From the NCBI GenBank assembly GCA_038888155.1, contig JAWAJB010000035.1, positions 1-11,023 of the forward strand: a stretch of 11,023 bases of DNA. The letters are read 5' to 3'. Under the pieces are notes generated by a model. That model saw only the letters and a list, made by a program, of their open reading frames with translations. It was not told where the DNA came from and made no database searches. Made by a program: the position numbers and the translations under genes. Within the stretch, counting starts at the first letter, position 1. Each line of letters starts with the position of its first letter. Source of the stretch: Desulfurococcaceae archaeon (lineage in GTDB: Archaea > Thermoproteota > Thermoprotei_A > Sulfolobales > Desulfurococcaceae). Below, piece by piece: positions 1-11,023 of this stretch.

Positions 1-358
1 ATAAAACCCAATGATTCACACACGCTTCACGGCCTGTAAGGGTTTGTCAACGCCCCCAACCCCTCTAGAAGCTGTGTCAGTGTCGCTAGCCCGTGGTATC
101 CATGCACCTTCCCTGTTCACCGACCTGATTAAGACGCTACTCTACAGGTCGCTGGGCAGAGTGTAACCGGCTCGATACTCGCTGAAACCAAGCGTGCAGC
201 CTGCAACGGCCGCCGGCCAATCCGAAACCCTAATACACAAGCCAGCCCGAAAACAGTAATGAGAGAGGCACACCCTCCCAGAAGATTCAAGCACTCCCTA
301 AACCACTCCTCACTCGCTCTAAAAACCTCGGCGACACCTCTCTCAAGGCTTAGAGTAT

Positions 359-374
359 CTCCGACAAGTCGGAG
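359..374. repeat. 7-bp inverted repeat with 2-nt spacer (CTCCGAC-AA-GTCGGAG), possible operator
   Basis: The IR is seen directly, just upstream of an AT-rich TATA-like element (CTTAAAAATA, about 386-395). Any regulatory role is inference. Confidence 0.3.
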
Positions 375-515
375 CCGAGTACAACCTTAAAAATAGCTGG
401 TATAGACCCTTGAAAACTCGCAAGTGATTTGCCGAGAAAGATTTGGCTTAACGAGAAGACTTTTCTAACCTAGGCTGGATAAGAAGCATTAAATGAGGGA
501 GTGAGGTGGCGCCTT

Positions 516-824
516 GTGGCAAGCTATAGGGTCAGGGTCACTGTGAGAGAGGTTAGAGGGTATTGCGCTTTGGGCTTAAAGCCCGGGGACGAGTTTATCA
601 TCGAAAGGTATTACTTTTTAACTCAACAGAATACTAGGGTTTGTCTACACGCCTTAGTGGGGATGTCCAGCCTTTTACTGCCGTTTCTGAAAGGAGTTTC
701 AGCTCGCGAGCTGGGCATTGGCATAGAAAATGATGTAGGGTTTGTTCACTGCCCCGATCCTGGAGGACCATACACTACAGGCGGCACAGTAATTTTCGAG
801 CTGAGGAGGGAAGAAATAGATTAA
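516..824 (+). CDS. TIGR04076-family small Cys-containing protein (uncharacterised, possibly redox/metal-related)
   Basis: Translation has the family-like pattern V.V.EVRGYC...KPGDEF, VCLHAL, HCPDPG...GGTVIFELRR. The ORF track starts at GTG 501, but GAGGTG (503-508) lies 7 nt before the in-frame GTG at 516, which is the more likely start. The stop overlaps the wecB stop (TTAA 821-824). Family assignment is from motif recall. Confidence 0.75.
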   Translation: MASYRVRVTVREVRGYCALGLKPGDEFIIERYYFLTQQNTRVCLHALVGMSSLLLPFLKGVSARELGIGIENDVGFVHCPDPGGPYTTGGTVIFELRREEID

Positions 825-1915
825 GACACTTCCTTCTCAACAGCATCCACTATTCTCTCCGCCGCCTTACCGTCGCCGAACGGTGACTCACTCGGTAGCT
901 CGGGCGGGTGGGAAAGCACTTTTTCCAGCTCTGCTAGCACGACACTTGGGTTCAAACCAACTATCCGAGCGAAACCCGCTCTAACGGCTTCAGGCCTCTC
1001 GGTGGAGTTTCTCAACACTAAGACGGGCTTCCTTATTCTTGGGTGGGTTGCTTCCTCTTGTATCCCGCCCGAGTCGGTCATAACAAGTTTTGAGTTTTTC
1101 AACAGGGCTAGGAATTCGAAGTAGCCTTGGGGTGGAAGGATCTGTGCGTGCTCTAGGTTACTGAGAGTTGTGAGAAGTCCATACTCTTCTAGTCTCTTAC
1201 GCGTTCTCGGGTGAATAGGGTAGACCACTGGAATAGGGGTTTTCTTCAATATTTCTATGAAGTTCTTAAGATTCTTCGGGTCGTCAACGTTTTCAGCACG
1301 ATGAAATGTTACTAGGACGTATTCGTCAAACTTTACTTGGCTCATCACGTTAGTCTCTACATCTAGTATCTTATCAAAGTATGTTTCAAGTGCGTCTATT
1401 ACTGTATTACCTGTTACGTAGATTTGACCGAGAACTTTCTCCTCCTCTAGATTTCTCTTATTTAGTTCTGTCGGAGCGAAGAGGTAGTCCGATATGTGAT
1501 CAACCATTCTCCTATTATGCTCCTCGGGCATTCTCCAATCGTAGCTTCTTAGACCAGCTTCTATGTGGCCAATCCTTATGCCGAGCCTTAGGGATGTGAG
1601 AGCTGTAGCTAGTACGCTATTTGTATCACCTTGGACGATGGTTACACCAGGTTTTCGTCTATGGGCTTCTAACGCCTTCTCTATCCTAATCATTATCTCC
1701 CCGATTTGAGCGGCTGGAGAGCTGTTCTCGAGTTTAAACTCCACGTGCGGGTTTGGCAATTTAAGCTCTTCAATGAATCTCCTACTCATTTCGTAATCGT
1801 AGTGTTGCCCCGTGTGAACGTATATAAACTCTACTCCTCTCCTCTCTAGTTCGCCTATGATTGGAGCCATTTTGATTATCTCGGGTCTTGTGCCTGTGAA
1901 TGCAAGTATGCTCAT
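821..1915 (-). CDS. wecB: UDP-N-acetylglucosamine 2-epimerase (non-hydrolysing)
   Basis: Motifs GTRPEIIK, HTGQH, QGDT, HIEAGLRS, MPEEHNR, HRAEN, HPRT, DSGGIQEE and TERPE are present. ATG 1915 overlaps the wecC stop (ATGA) with GGAG upstream, so it is preferred over GTG 1924. Confidence 0.96.
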   Translation of the reverse strand: MSILAFTGTRPEIIKMAPIIGELERRGVEFIYVHTGQHYDYEMSRRFIEELKLPNPHVEFKLENSSPAAQIGEIMIRIEKALEAHRRKPGVTIVQGDTNSVLATALTSLRLGIRIGHIEAGLRSYDWRMPEEHNRRMVDHISDYLFAPTELNKRNLEEEKVLGQIYVTGNTVIDALETYFDKILDVETNVMSQVKFDEYVLVTFHRAENVDDPKNLKNFIEILKKTPIPVVYPIHPRTRKRLEEYGLLTTLSNLEHAQILPPQGYFEFLALLKNSKLVMTDSGGIQEEATHPRIRKPVLVLRNSTERPEAVRAGFARIVGLNPSVVLAELEKVLSHPPELPSESPFGDGKAAERIVDAVEKEVS

Positions 1916-3225
1916 GCTCTCCACGCTCTACCGTAGCCTACTCCATAGTATTTGAACCCAGCTGAGATAGCCTTACTCGGCTCGAAAACCCTTCTTCCGT
2001 CAACTATTATTCTATGTCTTGCAAGCCCGCCCAACTCGTTCAAGTCGAGATGCTTGAACTCTGGGTGGTCAGTAACGACTACAATCATGTCAGCGTCTTT
2101 GACAGCTTCTTCCAAGTTCTCAGAGTACTTAGCTCCAAAGCTCTCGCGCGTGTATGGGTCGTGAACAACAACTTCTTTAAACCTCTTAGCTAACTCTACG
2201 ACTACTACTCTAGCTGGAGACTCCCTTGTGTCGTCAACACCTCCCTTGTAGGTAGCTCCCAATATGGCCACCTTAGATAGAGATGGATCCAATCCCTCAA
2301 GACCTGCCGCTCTCTCGACTATTTCAACCATATGGTATGGCATGAACTCGTTAATCCTCCTAGATATTTTAACTAGCTCTACGCCCCAGAAATCGGGTAA
2401 CAAGGACGCGAGCATACAAGGGTCCTTAGTTAGACAAGGACCTCCAACACCAGCACCAGGCCAGTGTATATTCACCCTAGGGTGAGTGTTAGCCAACCTA
2501 ATGGCCTCGTAGACATCTATTCCCAGCTTCTCAGCAATCAAAGCAATCAAGTTAGCGAACGCTATATTTAAATCACGAAAAGTATTCTCAACAAGCTTGA
2601 TAAACTCAGCAGTAGTGGCATCCGTAGGCAGTAAATTAGGATTAACCCTCCCGTAAACCTCCAACGCCCTCTCCGTAGAGCGAGGACCAACACCACCAAT
2701 AACCCTAGGCGCATGAAGCAATTCCTCAATCGCTCTACCTGGAGCAATCCTCTCAGGAACATGAGCAAGATAGAAATCCTCCTCTACCTTAAGCCCCGAA
2801 CCCCTTTCCAACATATCCCTAACTAATTCATTAGTAGTACCTGGGGGTACAGTAGATTCAATGACTACGAGCATATCTTCACGCAATTTCATAGCAACAG
2901 CTTGAGAGATGTTGACGACATAGCTTAAATCAACGACACCTCCATTAACTGGGGTGGGAACATCGATCAAAACAATATTGCACGAATCCAAAGCTTCCTC
3001 AATGCTAGAAGTAGCTGTTAGCCTTCCCTCGCTAACAGCCTTTCTAAGAAGATTATCAAGACCTGGCTCTTTTATATAAGGCTTACCTCTACCGATCATT
3101 GAAATCTTAAATTCATTAATATCAACGCCTATTACTTTATATCCATTATTAGCAAAAATAATAGCCGTAGGAAGCCCTACATAACCTAACCCCATGACAC
3201 ATATAATCTCGTGCATGCCATCCAT
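1912..3225 (-). CDS. wecC: UDP-N-acetyl-D-mannosamine dehydrogenase (UDP-glucose/GDP-mannose dehydrogenase family)
   Basis: Rossmann GLGYVG, VPTP, ESTVPPGT, PERIAPG, catalytic Lys in KLVENTFRD, catalytic Cys in GVGGPCLTKDP, and YKGGVDDTRESP. Adjacent to wecB. The start may be ATG 3216, about 9 nt downstream of GGGGT. Confidence 0.9.
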   Translation of the reverse strand: MDGMHEIICVMGLGYVGLPTAIIFANNGYKVIGVDINEFKISMIGRGKPYIKEPGLDNLLRKAVSEGRLTATSSIEEALDSCNIVLIDVPTPVNGGVVDLSYVVNISQAVAMKLREDMLVVIESTVPPGTTNELVRDMLERGSGLKVEEDFYLAHVPERIAPGRAIEELLHAPRVIGGVGPRSTERALEVYGRVNPNLLPTDATTAEFIKLVENTFRDLNIAFANLIALIAEKLGIDVYEAIRLANTHPRVNIHWPGAGVGGPCLTKDPCMLASLLPDFWGVELVKISRRINEFMPYHMVEIVERAAGLEGLDPSLSKVAILGATYKGGVDDTRESPARVVVVELAKRFKEVVVHDPYTRESFGAKYSENLEEAVKDADMIVVVTDHPEFKHLDLNELGGLARHRIIVDGRRVFEPSKAISAGFKYYGVGYGRAWRA

Positions 3226-3240
3226 ACCCCATGTCCTTAT

Positions 3241-3913
3241 CTAAATTGTGAGAGGATATTTACATTTTACGAACCACTCTTATTGATATTCAAGTAGATT
3301 CTGCGATGTTTTTCCTATATCCTCTTAAGGGGTTTTCATTAGATCGATCTCTGTTCATATTTCAACTAGTTTCAAACTCATTTGTTCTATGAATATTTTG
3401 AAGTCTTTAATGGTTAAATAATGCAGATGTGTAAAGTTCTGTCTAGGGAAATATCCCTTTACCAACTGAAGTTTCCATTTAACGAAACCGTATTTAGTGT
3501 AGTAATAATTATACCTTTTTCACATGAGTGCACACCTCCTTCAATACCACATATGGAAACTTCAAACGAAATAAGATGTGGTCATAAATTCCTGTCTCTA
3601 ACTTCAGGCCTTCTACGTCAACATCGCGAATATAAGTATCGAACTCCTTTCTCTAAGTTTCTTGACTATTTTGTGTGAAATACCAATACCTCATACGACA
3701 GCTTCCTTCTCTTTGTTTAATCTCTCCATGAAATGACCCTTACCGCAACCCTATATCAAGAATTAAGCCCGAGGCTTTACCAGCGACCTTATTGGCTAAC
3801 ATCTAATTTCGTATTAAGAAATTTAAGAGAGAACGTTCGCGATATTCTTCATAGTCTTTAAATAGCTTAAAATAAGGTGGTTTTTCGGTTAAAGCACCGA
3901 GAATTATTTTCAT
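3241..3913 (-). pseudogene. Degraded class I SAM-dependent methyltransferase, MetW-like
   Basis: Manual translation across frameshifts: MKIILGALTEKPPYFKLFKDYEEY...GLILDI/GCGKGHFMERLNKEKEAVV*GIGISHKIVKKLRER/FDTYIRDVDVEGLKLETGIYDHILF...VLKEVCTHVK/KGIIITTLNT/GFVKWKLQLVKGYFPRQNFTHLHYLTIKDFKIFIEQMSLKLVEI*. Motif I (LDIGCGxG, 3736-3760) is broken by one extra G in the GGG run at 3749-3751. In-frame stops occur at 3803-3805, 3691-3693 and 3355-3357. The ends are approximate. Confidence 0.88.
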
Positions 3914-3932
3914 CAGTAAAGGGTCATGATTT

Positions 3933-5177
3933 TTACCTTCTATGAAATCGAGAAACAACGTTATATAGTTCTTCTATATCTTTAATAGTTTTTTCTACAC
4001 AATAGTTAGAATGTCTAAGATTTTCAATAATATTTCTTCTCAATGTCTCTACATAAGAGTATTCTCCGACTAATTTCTTGACCATCTTAGAAAGCTCCTC
4101 TACACTATTAACAGTAAAACCCATGTTCTTACGAACTATCTCGCTGGCTCCTGGGAAGGGATAAACAATAGGTATTGCACCAGAACTCCATGCTTCTAGG
4201 ATAACTGTGGGGAATCCTTCTGGCCACCTAGTTGGTAGGAGCAAGATATCTATAGTTCTCATCCATGAGTTTTTCTCTTTATCTGTTAAAGGTCCTGTCA
4301 ATACTATATTACTTAATTTCCGAGTATTTACCTCATCGTGAAGTCTACGTTCATCGGGACCTCCACCTATGAAAACTACAAATATATTGTTCCTTAGGCT
4401 TTCCTCAATGCTATGTACGGCTTCTATTATATCAAAAATTCCTTTCTCTGATAAGATTCTACCAACGTATCCTATTACTAGTCTATTTTCTAAGCCTCTG
4501 GTTTTCTTAGACATGTGTTTTTCGTTGTTGATTATCTCAAAGCTCTTATTCATTATATCTAAACATTCTACAAAGTTTGGGATCACGATATATTTCTCCT
4601 CATAACTGTACAATTCTTTTAAGAAGATCTTTTTTACTTGTGTGAGCACTATAACCTTGTCGGCAAGATCTATGATTTTCTTTCTCGTTACGTATTCTTT
4701 CAACGACTTTGGATATGATGTATCATATCCGTGAGTTGAGACCACGACTCGTAAACCACGTTTCATGCCGATCGTTGCTGCTACAAGAGATCTTAGTGCA
4801 AGGTGATTAGAATGTATTATACATGTATTCTTGTCACATTCTTTTGCTATAATACTATCTATCATTGGTGCTAAAATAATTGCGCTAAAGAGTGCCCTAG
4901 GTTCTATAATAAGCAGGGGTGTAGTTTTTAATAGTAACCATGTATGGCGTAAGCCAAGAAGAACTAATTTTATCTTGTCTCTGCTTCTATATGGTAACCT
5001 GTACAAGGCTAAATTATCTGAAATGATGATATGAGGTCTTATATGAGGTCTTGTTTGCAGTATTACAACACTGTGTCCTCTTCTTAAAAGAGCTCTTACC
5101 AACGTGTGGATATAACTTGTAACACCACCTATATCAGGATAATAATCACCTAAAATTATTACTTTCATTTTCATCAC
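3933..5177 (-). CDS. Glycosyltransferase family 4 (GT-B fold)
   Basis: N-terminal YYPDIGGV, STHG, IPNFV, GRILSEKG, and the EX7E motif EGFPTVILEAW. The start overlaps the upstream stop (GTGATG at 5172-5177). Confidence 0.93.
   Translation of the reverse strand: MMKMKVIILGDYYPDIGGVTSYIHTLVRALLRRGHSVVILQTRPHIRPHIIISDNLALYRLPYRSRDKIKLVLLGLRHTWLLLKTTPLLIIEPRALFSAIILAPMIDSIIAKECDKNTCIIHSNHLALRSLVAATIGMKRGLRVVVSTHGYDTSYPKSLKEYVTRKKIIDLADKVIVLTQVKKIFLKELYSYEEKYIVIPNFVECLDIMNKSFEIINNEKHMSKKTRGLENRLVIGYVGRILSEKGIFDIIEAVHSIEESLRNNIFVVFIGGGPDERRLHDEVNTRKLSNIVLTGPLTDKEKNSWMRTIDILLLPTRWPEGFPTVILEAWSSGAIPIVYPFPGASEIVRKNMGFTVNSVEELSKMVKKLVGEYSYVETLRRNIIENLRHSNYCVEKTIKDIEELYNVVSRFHRR
5029..5052. repeat. 12-bp perfect tandem duplication (ATATGAGGTCTT x2) inside the GT4 gene
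   Basis: Seen directly; it encodes RPHI-RPHI in frame. Confidence 0.85.
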
Positions 5178-6373
5178 GCATAATATTTTGTCGCTCTGAA
5201 TACCTTAGCTATCAAATTGGATAAGGTCGTTCTCGTCATATATTTGGGAACGTACCGTCTCATCATTTGTGAAATTGAGAATATATCCACGTAACTAAGG
5301 CAAAGACTTTTTATCTCGATATGAGGTTTCAGGTTCAGAAATCCGTTATCTATGCTTAATACGGAAGGGTTGCATAAGATGCTGTAGCCGTAGGAAGTAT
5401 TATGAAGACCGACCTCTTCTAGAGGATAATTCAGTCCAGGTATTGAAGTAGCTAAGTTGAGATAATGTATCAAACCTATTTCCGTCATTAATGCTGAACC
5501 TATCTGTACATCGATGCCCATTTTTTTGCATAACATAGCTGTTTCACGCGTTATCCTTAAGCATCCAAGCTTCGATGGATGAAAATTCACTATATCAGCT
5601 ACCTCAAGTTCAGCAAATAACTCAATGTCTTGAGGCCTAGTTAGACTTTCATCTAACATTATTTTAATAGATGGATGGAATACTTTTCGTAGTTTCGCAG
5701 TCTCCTTTAAGGCATTCTTAGGCAGAGGTTGTTCTACTATATCGATGTTATATCTTTCCATAATTCTAAAGGCCTTGACGGCCTTCTCATAGTTCTCTAG
5801 ACACTGATTGGCATCGACTCTAAGTATAATGTCTGTTTCCTTTAGCGAATCTCTTATGATTCTTAAAGTTCGCTCTAAGTCATCTAAATTACAAGGAATC
5901 TTTATTTTGATGTGTCTCACTCCTTTTGATATCCACTTGTTTAATTCTTCAACCATGAAAAATGGATGCTTGAGGAATACCGTGCCCACCACTGGTACCT
6001 TATCTCTATACTCACCACCGAGTAAATGAGCGATTGATGTTTTTCTTCGTTTTGCTAAAGCATCTAATATGGCGCTCTCCAAAGAGAGGAATGCCCCATA
6101 AGTAACTCTACTGGTACACGAGAGTATATGGTACTCATATTCTTTCAGAGCTCTTAATGCTTCATCTAAACTGTAACCTATGATCATCCTCCTAAGCTTG
6201 ACTATTGTAGAGTAGTCTTCGAATATATTAGTTCCGTAAGGAGTCCCCTCGCCAACGCCATATACTGAGTCCTCGGTCCTTACGAATGTTATCAGATGCC
6301 AGGACTCTCTAATAGGTTTCCAGCCAGAAATAAAATGTGAAGTTGGTAATTTCAGTATGACAAAATCGATCAT
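5174..6373 (-). CDS. Enolase-superfamily protein (mandelate racemase/muconate lactonizing enzyme family), specific function unknown
   Basis: Capping-domain motifs GVGEG and ESAILDALAK...LLGG. Barrel motifs KxK (K156/K158), metal ligands D187 (RVDANQ), E214 (VEQP) and D241 (MLDES); numbering is from ATG 6373. The true start may be the in-frame ATT at 6391. Confidence 0.92.
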   Translation of the reverse strand: MIDFVILKLPTSHFISGWKPIRESWHLITFVRTEDSVYGVGEGTPYGTNIFEDYSTIVKLRRMIIGYSLDEALRALKEYEYHILSCTSRVTYGAFLSLESAILDALAKRRKTSIAHLLGGEYRDKVPVVGTVFLKHPFFMVEELNKWISKGVRHIKIKIPCNLDDLERTLRIIRDSLKETDIILRVDANQCLENYEKAVKAFRIMERYNIDIVEQPLPKNALKETAKLRKVFHPSIKIMLDESLTRPQDIELFAELEVADIVNFHPSKLGCLRITRETAMLCKKMGIDVQIGSALMTEIGLIHYLNLATSIPGLNYPLEEVGLHNTSYGYSILCNPSVLSIDNGFLNLKPHIEIKSLCLSYVDIFSISQMMRRYVPKYMTRTTLSNLIAKVFRATKYYA

Positions 6374-6394
6374 GCTTATATATTCTGAAATGAA

Positions 6395-6406
6395 GGATCA
6401 CCTCCT
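6395..6406 (-). promoter_or_regulatory. Very strong Shine-Dalgarno sequence AGGAGGTGATCC
   Basis: The plus strand reads GGATCACCTCCT, identical to the conserved archaeal 16S rRNA 3' tail. It sits in the 39-nt gap between the membrane protein gene and the enolase-family gene. Confidence 0.85.
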
Positions 6407-6412
6407 ACACTT

Positions 6413-8230
6413 TCACTTGATTACGAGTAAATAGTATAGGTTTGAATATATCACGCCTTCCCCATTATCAATGACATAGTATAATGGTCTGCGATAGAGG
6501 CTATAGTAGCCTAAAGGTCCTGGGAATACTTTATCGGAGATTGGCATTGGAATAACTACGTTTGCACGCCTCTCTAGGAGTTCTATCATTGCTTCCGATG
6601 CCGTGAGTTCTGGTCTAATGAAACCGTGTGTAGGAATTTTTGGCTTATTCCATAAGAGGTCACATAACCCGAAGCCTGTGTACGGCTGAACACAGAGAAA
6701 CCTGTAAGTACTATCTTCAACTAAAGAATTATTCAGGAACCTTAAGGTATCGAGCACGAAAGGCGAGATAGCTCCTTGGGTCCACACTGGGTAGGTGTAT
6801 AAGTCTCCTTCTAAGCTCGTAATATAAGGACCTATATGTATAGAATAATTCGCGATAAACCCCAGAGAGAGGAGTATAAGAGATAACGACCCAACGATAA
6901 ACTGTCTAGAAAAACCTCGAACCTCGGGTACTTTATATTTAGCTAAGTAATAAAGAATGTTTACGGTAAAGAAAAATTGTATCAAAGGTAAAGCTCTACT
7001 GCCACTCATAAAACTCCCTACTCCAATCCATCCCACTAACCACGTTAGTGACGATGAAATTAATAGAGTAAACAATGCGAACCTCTCGGTGTTTACATTG
7101 CTGGCCTGGTACTTTTTCCCGGGATATACTATATGTTTAATTACGGAGAGAGTGTACAAGCCAATACCTCCTAGTATGATAAGATTCTTTGTGTATTGAC
7201 TAATCAAATATTTAACCAAGTCTACAATAGAAATATACGGATTGTACTCAACGATACTTCTTGCAATCTCTAACTCGTATGCATACAGTTTAACGATCCT
7301 CTGAACACCTTGTACAAGGGTTAGCCCCATTAGATAAACGTCAACGAATATCTCGTATACCAAGAAAAGTGCTCCAACCACTATTAATGCGCTGATCAAT
7401 CCTCTTATACCTATATGAAGAGACCGGTTCCTAATTAATACCAATGATGCTAGAGATATTAGAGCAATGAAAAACAATGTTATTGTAGCTGTTGAAAGGT
7501 GGGTTGCTAGAAGTCCTAAGTATGCGATAATTAACATCAGAACATGCCTTGTTGTAAATCGGATCTTTGATATGAAAGTGATTGTTATGTAGTACGCTAT
7601 AAGAGCCACATACGCGTAAGCTAATTCGACTCCGCCGTAGTAAGGCAGGTACAACGTGAAAAGGGTTAGTAGTGAGAGTATCAATAGATGAATAGACTTG
7701 TTGAGAGCATTTGCTGGAATAACTAAAGCGGTCAGTAATGTGGCGTACGTTATGTAAGACGCTAGTAATACAATAGACATCGACACTGGTAGAGGAGTTA
7801 GCTGGCTGATTATTTTAAGTACCGCTGGCAAAACACCATTTCCAGGATGATGACCGTATTGGTCTGAGTAAAACAGTTCATTGTTAACTGGTATGTATCC
7901 TTTCTCAGCAACCCATAAAGCAAACGAATAATGAGCAGAGGAGTCCCATGGACCATACAACCATGAGTCGTTAGGGTATTTTAAAAGAGGTAGGTAAATA
8001 ACCATGGCAACCATAATAATATACGTAGATAACACTGATGCTTTTACTGTTTGAAACGCGTGTTTAGCTATTAATGAGATAATGACTAGAAAAGTAATAG
8101 TCTCTAAAACTATATTGTCCAATGGCATTGCATCTACGAAGACTTTGAATTTTATTAACGATATGGTAATAATATAAATTGTTGTTACAACCAGTATTGT
8201 AAAAAACGAGAGAAAGCTTTTCTCTCTCAT
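6413..8230 (-). CDS. Polytopic membrane protein, putative GT-C-fold glycan polymerase/transferase
   Basis: 605 aa with a dozen or more hydrophobic segments by eye. An early loop reads GPWDSSAHY...GYIP...QYGHHP, a late loop carries Arg (GSRALP), and there is a soluble C-terminal domain. It is flanked by GT genes. No WWDYG motif, so it is not AglB. The CDS is secure; the function is inferred. Confidence 0.6.
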   Translation of the reverse strand: MREKSFLSFFTILVVTTIYIITISLIKFKVFVDAMPLDNIVLETITFLVIISLIAKHAFQTVKASVLSTYIIMVAMVIYLPLLKYPNDSWLYGPWDSSAHYSFALWVAEKGYIPVNNELFYSDQYGHHPGNGVLPAVLKIISQLTPLPVSMSIVLLASYITYATLLTALVIPANALNKSIHLLILSLLTLFTLYLPYYGGVELAYAYVALIAYYITITFISKIRFTTRHVLMLIIAYLGLLATHLSTATITLFFIALISLASLVLIRNRSLHIGIRGLISALIVVGALFLVYEIFVDVYLMGLTLVQGVQRIVKLYAYELEIARSIVEYNPYISIVDLVKYLISQYTKNLIILGGIGLYTLSVIKHIVYPGKKYQASNVNTERFALFTLLISSSLTWLVGWIGVGSFMSGSRALPLIQFFFTVNILYYLAKYKVPEVRGFSRQFIVGSLSLILLSLGFIANYSIHIGPYITSLEGDLYTYPVWTQGAISPFVLDTLRFLNNSLVEDSTYRFLCVQPYTGFGLCDLLWNKPKIPTHGFIRPELTASEAMIELLERRANVVIPMPISDKVFPGPLGYYSLYRRPLYYVIDNGEGVIYSNLYYLLVIK

Positions 8231-8235
8231 ATCCC

Positions 8236-9441
8236 TTAACCCTTGTCCAGTAAATGCTTTATGATAATTAATAGTATACGTGCCCCTAAGACTCTGTCCA
8301 CTTTGCTTCTATAATTTTCTACCTTAATCTTGATCCTTGAATGTGCATCTTTTAGCATCAGAGTCTTTAATGAATGTTCAACACAGTCTAAATCACTCGG
8401 TCTGCAAACAAAACCTAAACCATTTTCTTCCACTAATCTCCACAGCTCACTATCCTTGTCGCAAAGAACTAAAACAGGTAATCCAAGAGCGATATACTCA
8501 TAAAACTTTACTGGGATTGCGTAATCAAAAATAGGAGAAGCAGATAATGGAACGATACCGATGTCTGACGCCGATAGAACTTCAACAAGTCTTCTCGTGT
8601 CTAGGTTGCCAAGATAAATAACTATATTTTCTGATACTAACGAGTTAATGAGTCGTTGATGCATCTTATCTACGATGGGGCCAGCTAATATTAATTTAAT
8701 TTTTCGATTGCTAAATGTATTCAGCTTTCTTACCAAGATCATAACCTTAATTAACTCATGGTATCCGCCAATCATACCTGTATAAGCTATAAGGAATGTG
8801 TCATCATCCATTCCCAACAACTGTCGTGCGACTACCCTATCTATACTTTTAAATACTGCTAGATCAGCCCCATTCGGAACGACCACTACATTTTTCAACG
8901 ACTTTTTTTCCAATCTCGCCTTAAGATTCTCTGTAACTGCTGTGACAAGGTGAGCTCTTGAACATATGGAGTAGTAAACACGACACAAAGTGTTGATAAA
9001 CTTAATGATTAATGTGTTTTGACCAGTCCGCGTCAAAGTACTATGAAATGATGTTTCTGGAGGGTCTCGTATATCAACAACGAGTTTTGCTTTAACTATT
9101 CTAGCACCTACATAACTTGGTATTAATATGCTATACTCAGGCACACTTGCTAAGATTATTTTTGGTCTGAGATGCATAATGTAGAATACAAGAGGAAATG
9201 ACAAAACAACGTTCAATAAATTGGCCAACAAAAACCTCGAAGAAATTAAGGGAAGAACATAGGTTAAGCACTTGCTAATTGGTTTTAAGACTTCATAACT
9301 ATATAGCATTTTAAAACCAACACATGTCAAATTCACATTATTCCTAGACAGAAAATCTAAGAAATAACCAATCCGCCTATAAGCAGCTGTACCTCTCAAA
9401 AAATATGTACTTATGACAAGAACATCACCAGCTCTTCTCAT
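8236..9441 (-). CDS. Glycosyltransferase family 4 (WbuB-like subfamily)
   Basis: AAYRRI, VVDIRDP, VPNGAD, YTGMIG, and PVKFYEYIALGLPV (the PxKxxEY variant of the GT4 nucleotide-binding motif). Confidence 0.9.
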   Translation of the reverse strand: MRRAGDVLVISTYFLRGTAAYRRIGYFLDFLSRNNVNLTCVGFKMLYSYEVLKPISKCLTYVLPLISSRFLLANLLNVVLSFPLVFYIMHLRPKIILASVPEYSILIPSYVGARIVKAKLVVDIRDPPETSFHSTLTRTGQNTLIIKFINTLCRVYYSICSRAHLVTAVTENLKARLEKKSLKNVVVVPNGADLAVFKSIDRVVARQLLGMDDDTFLIAYTGMIGGYHELIKVMILVRKLNTFSNRKIKLILAGPIVDKMHQRLINSLVSENIVIYLGNLDTRRLVEVLSASDIGIVPLSASPIFDYAIPVKFYEYIALGLPVLVLCDKDSELWRLVEENGLGFVCRPSDLDCVEHSLKTLMLKDAHSRIKIKVENYRSKVDRVLGARILLIIIKHLLDKG

Positions 9442-9774
9442 AATCCCATCCTTTTACTGTTAATATTGACTATCAAACACTAGTGTACATCAAGTATACT
9501 CCAATATAATAAGTATCTAAACTAGTGTGATATAATCTTTTAATTTTTAATTTTAAATCAATATAACACATTTCTCAACATCAACTTGTCAAGAAAACAT
9601 CTCTTTCTAACATACTTTAATCAGTTGACAAAGAGTCTTATCTGTATTTTTCTCAGATCTGATGGAATAGATTAAGCTATTACTTATATCAGCGATCACG
9701 GCTTCGGATATTGGTGAATGGATTCGGTGTCATAATGGATTCCTATCGAGACTCACGTCTCCTCTCAGCTAGGT

Positions 9775-10150
9775 TTAACATATACGTATATATTTTTCAT
9801 AAAATGATTGCGGGGATTAAAGCTCTCTATAAACTTCTTTTATTCTATCCCCCCGTTTTTTCTGTCAAAATTTTTAATTATTTGTTTAAGTTCTTCATAT
9901 GAGTTAAAAATTAGTTCGTTATCTAAATTTTGACTATTTCCGGCAATCCTCCTTTGTTCATTGTTATTACTGGTGTTCCCACTGAAATAGCTTCTAATGC
10001 TATCAATGTGTAGTTCTCTGGATATATGGATGGCACTTTCAATAGACTTAGATTTTATGCATACTAGGAGATGAACTTTATTGTTCGATTTATGACTGTT
10101 AATAAATTCGGATACTTTAATTTTAGACTTCCGCTTCCGGCGATGAGTGT
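9775..10150 (-). pseudogene. Degraded C-terminal half of a GT4 glycosyltransferase
   Basis: Across frameshifts: LIAGSGSL/VSEFINSHKSNNKVHLL/VPSIYPENYTLIALEAISVGTPVITMNKGGLPEIV (9932-10036)/LDNELIFNSYEELKQII/RIKEVYREL*SPQSFYEKYIRIC*. The EX7E motif is intact. No N-terminal domain is present. Confidence 0.88.
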
Positions 10151-10164
10151 GTTGTCATCAATTT

Positions 10165-10329
10165 CAAGTGTTGAAACTATGAAGTAGCTTATTAATGAAC
10201 ATTTTTAATCCACATACGTTTAGTTAGATAACCATTTTTGCTAAGTGTGATCGACACAAGTGGGCAAGTAGATTTTCCTGTTCCATCCGGTCCGCAAAAA
10301 GCGATCACATAGGTATTAGGGATCTTCAT
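10165..10329 (-). pseudogene. N-terminal fragment of a thymidylate-kinase-like P-loop kinase
   Basis: ATG 10329 overlaps the upstream GT by 14 nt and reads MKIPNTYVIAFCGPDGTGKSTCPLVSITLSKNGYLTKRMWIKNVH* (stop 10192-10194). It continues after a frameshift as LISYFIVSTLE. IAFCGPDGTGKST matches the TMPK-type Walker A (hhFxGxDGxGKST). Confidence 0.8.
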
Positions 10330-11023
10330 TTATTCCATCGACCATAAGTCGTAGGTATTTTTCCGCGTTTACCTGCCATGAAAAGTGTTTTCTAACGTGA
10401 TTTAAGCCATTGACGGAGAGTTTTTTTCTTAGATTTTCATCGGCTAGTATGGATTCCAATGTTTTAGCAAGCTCTTCAGGATTAGGTCTTTCAACTAATA
10501 GGCCTGTAGCCTCGTGTCTCACAACCTCAGGTACTCCGCTTACTTTTGTTGCGACGACTGTGGAGCCGCAAGCCATGGCTTCTAAAATGGTTGCCGGTAG
10601 GCCTTCAAAAACGGATGGTAAAACGTATACGTATGCTAACGAATAGAGATATTTGAGGATAGACCCAGGCACTTTTCCGATGAAAAACACGCGATTCAAA
10701 ACACCGCATTTCTCTGCTAGGCTTAAACACATCTCTATGTACCGTGTATCTCCACTACCTGCGATGATCAATGACCACGACTTATCATCAAGCGTGCAGA
10801 GGGATTTAATCAATAAGTGTAAACCCTTACGTGGTTCAAGCCTGCTAATGAAAAGTAAGATCTTCTCGCCACCCGTAAGTTCCTTATATCCCCTTAAAGC
10901 CAGTAGTTTATTCATAATTTTTAAGGCCTTGTTCAGCGGCTGAGGCTTGAACGTATCAACGTCTACGGAGTTTGGAATCATTGCAATTCTCTCTCTAGGG
11001 ATTTGATAAAGACTCGTTAAGAT
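10316..11023 (-). CDS. Glycosyltransferase family 4, 5' part outside window
   Basis: The frame is open to the window edge (ILTSLYQIPRERIAMIPNSVD...). Motifs SRLEPRKG, IAGSG, EX7E in EGLPATILEAMACG, and GVPEVV are present. The ORF-track start at 10981 is an internal Met. Confidence 0.93.
   Translation of the reverse strand: MLTSLYQIPRERIAMIPNSVDVDTFKPQPLNKALKIMNKLLALRGYKELTGGEKILLFISRLEPRKGLHLLIKSLCTLDDKSWSLIIAGSGDTRYIEMCLSLAEKCGVLNRVFFIGKVPGSILKYLYSLAYVYVLPSVFEGLPATILEAMACGSTVVATKVSGVPEVVRHEATGLLVERPNPEELAKTLESILADENLRKKLSVNGLNHVRKHFSWQVNAEKYLRLMVDGINEDP

Follow-up and report, generated by a model that had tools for sequence, protein, structure and literature searches.

A divergent enolase-superfamily enzyme in archaeal glycan gene clusters as a candidate Mg-dependent hexuronate C5-epimerase

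The DNA considered here (hereafter the window) is the entire 11,023-bp contig C35 (JAWAJB010000035.1) of a Desulfurococcaceae archaeon, whose assembly amounts to 2.42 Mb and is 97.4% complete with 6.4% contamination. All large open reading frames (ORFs) of the window lie on the minus strand; they encode GT4 glycosyltransferases, a polytopic membrane protein, WecB, a WecC-like dehydrogenase and the subject of this work, a divergent member of the MLE subgroup of the enolase superfamily (Table 1). An earlier note, made from the sequence alone, had described the latter as an intact MR/MLE-family gene and proposed its product as a candidate uronate C5-epimerase or glycan-modifying enzyme. The gene is indeed intact, with an ATG start and zero internal stops. 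Its product belongs to an archaeal family that is marked by a Lys-to-His change in the active site and conserved in glycan gene neighbourhoods, and for which the C5-epimerisation of an N-acetylmannosaminuronic acid (ManNAcA)-type uronate can be tentatively proposed.

Table 1. Genes and other features of the 11,023-bp window.
Feature	Position	Strand	Basis
GT4 glycosyltransferase, C-terminal part, truncated by the contig end	10316-11023	-	Pfam
GT4-type glycosyltransferase (GT4b)	8236-9441	-	Pfam, NCBIfam
Polytopic membrane protein, 605 aa, no Pfam family	6413-8230	-	Pfam, hydrophobic segments
Divergent MLE-subgroup enolase-superfamily enzyme, 399 aa	5174-6373	-	Pfam, AlphaFold model, Foldseek
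GT4 glycosyltransferase (GT4a)	3933-5177	-	Pfam (Glycos_transf_1, 1.4e-26)
708-bp gap between GT4a and wecC	3226-3932	-	sequence
Decayed MetW-like S-adenosylmethionine (SAM)-methyltransferase gene	3268-3750	-	in-frame stops, frameshifts
Nucleotide-sugar 6-dehydrogenase, WecC-like	1912-3225	-	Pfam, NCBIfam
Non-hydrolysing UDP-GlcNAc 2-epimerase WecB	821-1924	-	Pfam, NCBIfam equivalog
ORF of 107 aa adjoining wecB, no Pfam family	501-824	+	ORF listing, Pfam

Regarding gene order, the TGA stop codon of the enzyme gene overlaps the start of GT4a (GCG TGA TGA AAA TG), by 4 nt with the GTG start or by 1 nt with the ATG start, as expected from the translational coupling put forward in the earlier note. 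The same note had placed the enzyme in an operon shared with wecB and wecC. Both genes are present, overlap each other by 13 nt and lie on the same strand as the enzyme gene, but since the 708-bp gap with its methyltransferase remnant separates GT4a from wecC, a single operon spanning the enzyme, GT4a, wecC and wecB is only plausible, and the link of the enzyme to wecB/wecC would rest on conserved synteny. The G+C content is 45-51% over wecB/wecC (positions 1-3000) vs 32-40% over the remaining window (3000-10500), and WecB/WecC are 60-73% identical between loci vs 39-52% for the enzyme. Together, these differences suggest a variable, perhaps laterally exchanged, module beside a stable precursor module.

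The enzyme matches the Pfam families MR_MLE_C (E 3.5e-28; 99.2 bits for a cut-off of 29.4) and MR_MLE_N (E 1e-6; 29.4 bits for a cut-off of 22). Its AlphaFold model, generated from a 44-sequence alignment, has a mean predicted local distance difference test (pLDDT) score of 91.1 and a predicted template modeling (pTM) score of 0.88. Both the model and Foldseek comparisons display the two-domain architecture of the enolase superfamily, in which an alpha+beta capping domain is associated with a modified TIM barrel, the modeled barrel strands being residues 125-132, 154-158, 183-187, 212-214, 237-240, 261-264, and 288-291. Foldseek returned at least 500 matches at E<=1e-3; the top rows are all enolase-superfamily structures and the best Protein Data Bank (PDB) matches all belong to the MLE subgroup. 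The first is the N-succinyl Arg/Lys racemase 2p88 (E 1.4e-25; template modeling (TM) scores 0.77/0.83), which is also matched by sequence (E 6.5e-23) and by profile (E 9.5e-54), and muconate cycloisomerases and dipeptide epimerases are found among the further best structural matches.

In the enolase superfamily, a Mg2+ ion held by three carboxylates binds the carboxylate of the substrate, and a base takes the proton alpha to it. The conservation of the corresponding sites was tabulated in an alignment of 235 sequences of 300-460 aa, comprising 96 family members and 139 out-group sequences. The KxK motif of the MLE subgroup is present as K156/K158 on beta2 (strand 154-158) in 96/96 members, and the Mg2+ ligands D187 (end of beta3), E214 (end of beta4), and D241 (end of beta5) are likewise found in 96/96 and align with the metal ligands of 2p88, 1jpm, and 3jva. 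These five residues also occur in nearly all out-group sequences. The second catalytic Lys of the subgroup, on beta6, is missing: the aligned site is Lys in 2p88, 1jpm, and 3jva, and in the enzyme it is His265, directly after strand 261-264. This position is His in 96/96 family members vs Lys in 108 of the out-group sequences, with Tyr in 13, His in 11, Arg in 3, and other residues in 2, and the surrounding motif reads NFHPSKLGC vs N-I-K-L-M-K-x-G-G in the reference enzymes. As judged from the sequences, a Lys/His pair of this kind would suit proton abstraction alpha to a carboxylate. A pseudo-enzyme was considered and rejected because the catalytic residues are invariant (96/96).

Further positions that are fixed in the family and rare in the out-group are G43, T44, Y46, F133, H154, F264, P266, C271, M296, L318, and E320. 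Among these, G43/T44/Y46 form an insertion in the 50s loop, and the site of M296 is Glu in 98/136 out-group sequences. The protein also carries a C-terminal extension of ~20 residues (window 5174-5320), with a median of 50 residues past G344 vs 28 in the out-group; over residues ~350-399, a long helix (367-398) is predicted after a low-confidence linker. In the window's copy, the last 40 residues have a net charge of +6 and are moderately amphipathic (hydrophobic moment ~0.48), and through this basic helix, as modeled, the enzyme might attach to the membrane or to a partner.

A word-indexed search retrieved 104 clusters, 96 of them at E<=6.6e-61 with 39-100% identity, the next two at 1.3e-36 and 5.1e-25. 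An exhaustive HMMER search of 1.84 billion representatives gave 4,510 proteins at E<=1e-3 and only 15 at E<=1e-30, several of which are fragments. The named sources of the family clusters are all archaeal metagenome-assembled genomes (MAGs), from Ignisphaera, Desulfurococcaceae, Thermosphaera, Zestosphaera, Acidilobaceae, Bathyarchaeia, Archaeoglobales, and Thermoplasmata. In a FastTree phylogeny of 117 rows, for which every second full-length sequence was taken, the 48 rows belonging to the family lie on one side of a branch with a Shimodaira-Hasegawa-like support of 97, and together with the distant His-type sequences P0097, P0112, and P0114 they form a group with a support of 99. Since long branches and compositional bias were flagged by the tree tool, only the monophyly of the family is taken as solid; at the sequence level, the family is a small discrete archaeal clade. 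Its next relatives P0205, P0220, P0223, and P0238 also have the N-x-H-P motif, and P0133 and P0168 likewise carry the beta6 His; these N-x-H-P sisters look bacterial. Neither P0205, P0223, P0238, P0133, P0168 nor the more distant His-type sequences reach any NCBIfam cut-off, and for P0205, the sole N-x-H-P sister searched, no close solved structure was found. A regular-expression scan of the plus-strand frames of 74 distant metagenome loci (L021-L094) found no beta6 His.

With regard to its distribution, the enzyme is matched at E<=1e-40 in 3 of 401 genomes sampled across the phylum, its own genome counted, and in 1/3 other genomes of the same genus, which makes it a rare accessory gene. The loci collected for this work come from Desulfurococcales, Ignisphaera, Thermosphaera, Zestosphaera, Pyrobaculum, Bathyarchaeia, Archaeoglobales, and Hadesarchaea. 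Given its occurrence in the last three lineages, lateral spread among thermophilic archaea is likely. Broken copies are seen at 6743-7608 of the Pyrobaculum MAG locus L010 and at 510-854 of L019, a 1-kb metagenome contig with 67% identity to the window enzyme, where short ORFs of 90 and 114 aa are left; either gene decay or assembly error would account for them.

The family does not coincide with any established iso-functional one. Among 19 matching NCBIfam families, none reaches its cut-off for the enzyme, the best being menC (105 vs 200.65 bits). For MenC (o-succinylbenzoate synthase, OSBS), the individual scores are 105.1 vs 200.65 (TIGR01928), 70.1 vs 288 (NF002782), and 53.3 vs 130.55 (TIGR01927). 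The L-Ala-D/L-Glu dipeptide epimerase models give 61.9 vs 500 bits (NF041118) and 54.6 vs 343 (NF011708), and the beta6 Lys of these enzymes is absent; the muconate/chloromuconate cycloisomerase model TIGR02534 gives 100 vs 334.95 bits, and the glucarate dehydratase model scores the enzyme at 15 bits. An ordinary OSBS, N-succinylamino acid racemase (NSAR), dipeptide epimerase or muconate cycloisomerase is thus ruled out by the NCBIfam scores, the separate clade, and the lost beta6 Lys. The earlier note would have given up its proposal had the nearest homologues been ordinary OSBS, NSAR or dipeptide epimerases outside glycan loci; instead, they form a clade of their own, with 39-82% identity, in glycan loci. 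A second MLE-subgroup paralogue is encoded in the same genome on contig C2 (247230-247874; L001:1063-2190), with 375 aa and a MR_MLE_C score of 179.8 bits, and no NCBIfam equivalog above cut-off was found for it.

The gene neighbourhood was compared over 17 loci having at least one readable neighbour (L004-L018, L020, and L113), drawn from 11 one-genome-per-species contigs (L004-L014), 6 metagenomic loci (L015-L020), and 1 phylum-survey locus (G141, i.e., L113). The 1-kb fragment L019 and the contig-edge pieces of G184 were left out of these counts, as were 74 further metagenome loci with <=31% identity; neighbouring ORFs were called by a longest-ORF script and searched against Pfam at E<=1e-5. 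Glycosyltransferases are present in 15/17 loci, the two without being L008 (2.7 kb) and L020 (3.8 kb), and a nucleotide-sugar 6-dehydrogenase in 10/17, including all five loci with ~10 kb on both sides (L004, L006, L011, L012, and L113). The neighbourhood analysis suggested in the earlier note therefore comes out in favor of a glycan context. WecB is found in 6/17 loci. Orthologues of GT4b (30-50% identity, full-length or nearly) occur in 10/17, immediately upstream of the enzyme in L009, L013, L016, and L017, whereas a GT4a orthologue (36% identity) occurs in L005 only, which weakens the translationally coupled GT4a as a functional partner. A polytopic membrane protein without Pfam family is present in 13/17 loci, 6 being orthologous to that of the window and 7 belonging to three other types with 8-10 hydrophobic segments. 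By these sequence comparisons, GT4b is the glycosyltransferase that accompanies the enzyme most consistently, and GT4b and the membrane protein are its conserved partners.

Other neighbours are confined to some of the loci. A protein with an Asn_synthase domain is found in 6/17 and is the immediate neighbour of the enzyme in L004, L009, and L012; in L113, an ATP-grasp enzyme takes its place. In another 6/17 (L007, L011, L013, L016, L017, and L018), a fusion of ADH_zinc_N and GFO_IDH_MocA domains (~735-750 aa) lies immediately downstream of the enzyme, with inositol 2-dehydrogenase and AdhP as best NCBIfam matches, both far below cut-off. Methyltransferases, FkbM-type or other, and unannotated proteins are common. 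In the genome to which the window belongs, no orthologue of the cluster-type Asn-synthase-like enzyme was found (0 matches at E<=1e-5), its other Asn_synthase-family ORFs being only 27-29% identical to that enzyme over <=181 residues, and no orthologue of the ADH-GFO fusion was found either. This leaves WecB/WecC, the GT4s, and the membrane protein as the sole constant partners.

Concerning the individual neighbours, the membrane protein upstream of the enzyme was called GT-C-like in the earlier note. Its polytopic nature holds, with 12 hydrophobic segments; the GT-C label is weakly supported. GT-C enzymes are characterised by a polytopic N-terminal module whose first outer loop contains a conserved acidic residue. 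In the membrane protein, for which the search gave 11 homologue clusters, D96 is one of several invariant residues and lies in the first loop, between helices 62-79 and 98-110. The structural model is poor (pLDDT 59.2; 16-sequence alignment), and with this poor model Foldseek gave zero matches at E<=1e-3; the 18 top rows are all GT-C proteins (DPY19, STT3/OST, PglB, AftA, and ArnT), with E from 1.4e-3 to 4.2e-2 and TM scores of 0.29-0.40. In two clusters neighbouring the membrane protein in the Atlas, PMT_2 is assigned to 17% of the members and DUF2206 to 10%. The protein is possibly of GT-C fold, which makes a reasonable lead and not a finding.

WecB and WecC had been taken by the earlier note as a pair making UDP-ManNAcA. 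WecB scores 349 bits, above the 210-bit equivalog cut-off of TIGR00236, but the WecC-like enzyme passes only the nucleotide-sugar dehydrogenase subfamily model. Next to them, the 501-824 ORF is 58-61% identical to ORFs at the equivalent position in L004, L006, L009, and L015, and can be regarded as a conserved small protein travelling with wecB/wecC. The methyltransferase remnant, starting with GCGKGHF, fills most of the gap upstream of wecC. It is 30.5% identical over 167 residues to the intact gene that L005 has in its place (L005:11516-12049), contains nine in-frame stops, and aligns better in a second frame over 3515-3652. A comparable case is seen in the 875-bp gap at 9442-10315, for which no ORF of >=80 aa is listed: at 10195-10308, on the minus strand, 39 residues resembling a P-loop (..GPDGTGKS..) match the beginning of a Pfam-less 207-aa protein conserved in L004 and L009 (E 4.9e-5). 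From its sequence, this is probably a second decayed gene.

Considering function, what is counted as established comprises the fold, metal and base residues that are intact, the replacement of Lys by His, a clade of its own, and the conservation of a glycan/uronate neighbourhood. The beta2 Lys and the beta6 His face the substrate from opposite sides, as in the Lys/Lys racemases of the subgroup. The 6-dehydrogenase, paired with WecB, is the sole carboxylate-producing enzyme recurring beside the gene, its product being a HexNAc-uronate and most likely UDP-ManNAcA, and in a pyranuronate H5 is the sole proton alpha to the carboxylate. From the intact machinery, the uronate as sole recurring carboxylate, H5 as sole alpha proton, and the Lys/His pair, it can be proposed that the enzyme acts as a Mg-dependent C5-epimerase converting a ManNAcA-type uronate to N-acetyl-L-gulosaminuronic acid (L-GulNAcA), which, by analogy, seems the most likely single outcome even if it is put forward tentatively. 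The protein would be a cytoplasmic, catalytically competent Mg2+-dependent enolase-superfamily enzyme recruited to surface-glycan biosynthesis. It would bind, via the C6 carboxylate, the ManNAcA-type hexuronate that WecB/WecC produce, either as the UDP-sugar or as a lipid-linked intermediate, H5 would be removed via the acid/base pair of Lys156/Lys158 (beta2) and His265 (beta6), and return of a proton on the opposite face would give the C5 epimer L-GulNAcA. GT4b and the membrane protein may then use or carry on this residue, and in many relatives an Asn-synthase-like or ATP-grasp enzyme might afterwards amidate the carboxylate.

Several points weigh against this proposal. We infer the substrate, C5 as the site of attack, and epimerisation over elimination as the outcome, and all support comes from genomic context and active-site logic. 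The nearest solved relatives, i.e., N-succinyl-Arg/Lys racemase, dipeptide epimerases and muconate cycloisomerases, include no sugar-acid enzyme. The 6-dehydrogenase is not seen in 7/17 loci, and in all seven the contig stops at most a few kb from the gene, on one side or on both. WecC matches the archaeal UDP-ManNAc dehydrogenase model best, with 432 bits for a cut-off of 750, so that the uronate could be a different N-acetylhexosaminuronic acid (HexNAcA). The Lys/His pair suits beta-elimination equally well, and the amide-forming enzymes beside the gene in 7/17 loci also fit a role on an amide-linked substituent.

The main rival follows from the last point, the enzyme acting as a racemase at the alpha-carbon of an amino acid, or of another acid with an alpha hydrogen, that the Asn-synthase-like or ATP-grasp ligase has linked to the uronate carboxyl as an amide. 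A uronoyl-amino acid is a N-acyl amino acid, the type of substrate used by the nearest solved relatives, and the best PDB matches are 2p88 and the dipeptide epimerases 3jva and 1jpm. The Asn_synthase-domain proteins of 6/17 loci and the ATP-grasp enzyme of L113 could supply the ligase, and threonine is amide-linked to ManNAcA in Methanococcus N-glycans. An amide precedent is also given by the glycine on GulNAcA in Vibrio cholerae polysaccharide (VPS) (PMC13463779). Such a role is nevertheless judged unlikely: the ligase is not seen in 10/17 loci and its orthologue is not found in the 97%-complete genome of the window, the second-base beta6 Lys of these racemases is His here, and the enzyme falls far below the cut-offs of the dipeptide-epimerase/racemase NCBIfam models, as with the 61.9 vs 500 bits cited above. 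Chemically close to the main proposal, and somewhat less credible than the racemase, is an eliminase, in which abstraction of H5 from a ManNAcA-type uronate is followed by beta-elimination of the 4-OH with His265 as general acid, leaving a 4,5-unsaturated (4-deoxy-hex-4-enuronate) sugar that the downstream ADH/GFO fusion might reduce or process in some lineages. His is the usual general acid for hydroxyl loss in the dehydratases of the superfamily, and His takes the place of the beta6 Lys in 96/96 members. Within the MLE subgroup, galactarolactone and 3,6-anhydro-L-galactonate cycloisomerases eliminate the oxygen beta to a carboxylate, and the 3,6-anhydro-L-galactonate cycloisomerase 5xd7 is among the weak PDB matches (E 8.5e-6). 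The fusion, immediately downstream in 6/17 loci, is however lacking in the window, its genome, and the other 11/17 loci, and we know of no natural glycan made from a nucleotide-activated 4,5-unsaturated HexNAcA. The VPS pathway is moreover a direct precedent for epimerisation and not for elimination (PMC13463779).

The substrate could also be another carboxylate of the cluster, such as a substituent of lactyl, pyruvyl or glycerate type or a small free acid attached later, or the reaction could be a cycloisomerisation or lactonisation. In its favor, the enolase superfamily covers varied chemistry, the loci often contain methyltransferases and unannotated proteins, and the active-site lining departs from the out-group at G43, T44, Y46, F133, F264, P266, C271, M296, L318, and E320. 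However, no enzyme making or attaching such an acid is consistently present, the only repeated source of a carboxylate being the 6-dehydrogenase, and this explanation appears about as improbable as an eliminase. Far more remote is an ordinary metabolic MLE enzyme (OSBS, muconate cycloisomerase or acid-sugar enzyme) lying by chance beside glycan genes, or an inactive relic. It would fit the purely generic Pfam and NCBIfam names, the decayed genes of the cluster, and the presence of the gene in only 3/401 genomes, but the glycan neighbourhood recurs in distantly related archaeal lineages (15/17 loci), the catalytic and metal residues are kept in 96/96 members within an intact ORF modeled at a pLDDT of 91, and a generic MLE paralogue is encoded separately on contig C2 of the genome. 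That both the glycan synteny and the catalytic residues are conserved strongly disfavors this explanation.

While the superfamily and subgroup of the enzyme are known, what is new is the residue set combining KxK with a beta6 His, as well as the setting in glycan biosynthesis. A search of open-access full text found no paper linking the enolase superfamily to glycan or nucleotide-sugar biosynthesis. To our knowledge, the known members function in catabolism, menaquinone synthesis, peptidoglycan recycling, and amino-acid racemisation, and none in the building of glycans. C5-epimerisation of ManNAcA to L-GulNAcA could be part of a broader claim, slightly more doubtful than the outcome alone: the first glycan-biosynthetic enzyme of the superfamily would be a metal-assisted hexuronate C5-epimerase that gained its Lys/His pair by a beta6 Lys-to-His change on the MLE scaffold, that arose independently of the beta-helix/lyase-like (AlgG, Glce) and AGE-like (Agl32/VpsJ) epimerases, and that forms a new catalytic subgroup with the NxHP sisters P0205, P0220, P0223, P0238, P0133, and P0168. 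Whatever the substrate, the strictly conserved Lys-to-His swap represents an unexplored catalytic variant of the MLE subgroup, in a superfamily that is a standard test case for the prediction of enzyme function. If the proposal is true, a thermostable, soluble, Mg-dependent C5 editor of an activated or lipid-linked uronate would be a third way of making L-configured uronates; it would help to predict the surface glycans of uncultured hyperthermophilic archaea and could serve the synthesis of rare sugar nucleotides. The making of rare L-uronates such as L-GulNAcA is only now being worked out, and the enzymes so far proposed for it have unrelated folds (PMC13463779, PMC13308652).

Compared with known systems, the enzyme is matched best, by sequence, profile, and structure alike, by the N-succinylamino-acid racemase 2p88 and the dipeptide epimerases 3jva and 1jpm, with 22-23% identity in the Foldseek alignments. 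They share with it the two-domain fold, the KxK of beta2, and the D/E/D ligands. Unlike them, the enzyme has the beta6 His, changes around beta6-beta8 and in the 50s loop, and a longer C-terminus, and its genes are found in glycan clusters instead of peptide or amino-acid contexts. Muconate and chloromuconate cycloisomerases (3dgb, 1muc, and 2chr) are also alike in fold and subgroup, and the invariant E319 of the enzyme aligns with the Glu of their '..E-L-x-G' motif; they differ in the aromatic-catabolism context, which the enzyme lacks, and in the low TIGR02534 score given above. Lys and His on opposite faces are known from mandelate racemase and glucarate dehydratase. The latter takes the proton alpha to a sugar-acid carboxylate, epimerises C5 (D-glucarate/L-idarate), and eliminates the 4-OH, the type of chemistry put forward for the window enzyme. 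In these two enzymes, which belong to other subgroups, the His is on beta7 and paired with a beta6 Asp, whereas that of the window enzyme is on beta6 of a MLE-type scaffold, and sequence similarity is negligible. Regarding uronate C5-epimerases, AlgG/AlgE, Glce, and DS-epimerase have beta-helix or (alpha/alpha)-barrel folds. The model of the enzyme is an enolase-superfamily barrel and shows none of the folds known for uronate C5-epimerases, so that the likeness is one of functional analogy only.

A published parallel is the pathway of VPS in V. cholerae. VpsA and VpsB, which are WecB/WecC-like, make UDP-ManNAcA, which is transferred by VpsK; the role proposed for VpsJ is epimerisation at C5, on the lipid-linked disaccharide, to give L-GulNAcA, and VpsH then adds a glycine amide (PMC13463779). 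Like the loci considered here, it combines a WecB/WecC-type pair, a transferase, a C5-modifying enzyme, an amide-forming enzyme, and GT4s (PMC13463779), and given the role of VpsH an amide step would fit the Asn-synthase-like and ATP-grasp neighbours. In contrast to the enzyme, VpsJ, reported to resemble AGE-like 2-epimerases as well as aspartate-semialdehyde dehydrogenases, has a non-enolase fold, is bacterial, works in a Wzx/Wzy-dependent pathway, and is itself only a proposed epimerase (PMC13463779). Among archaea, Agl32 from Halobacterium salinarum is a D-glucuronyl C5-epimerase of N-glycosylation with an AGE-superfamily (alpha/alpha)6-type fold, which acts on glucuronic acid (GlcA) flanked by GlcA and is the only uronate C5-epimerase described from archaea (PMC13308652). 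It resembles the enzyme in being archaeal and cluster-encoded and in its action on C5 of a glycan uronate, and is unrelated to it in sequence and fold (PMC13308652). Between them, the bacterial and the archaeal pathway show that C5-epimerisation of uronates in glycans, that of ManNAcA included, is a real biosynthetic step performed by other folds (PMC13463779, PMC13308652).

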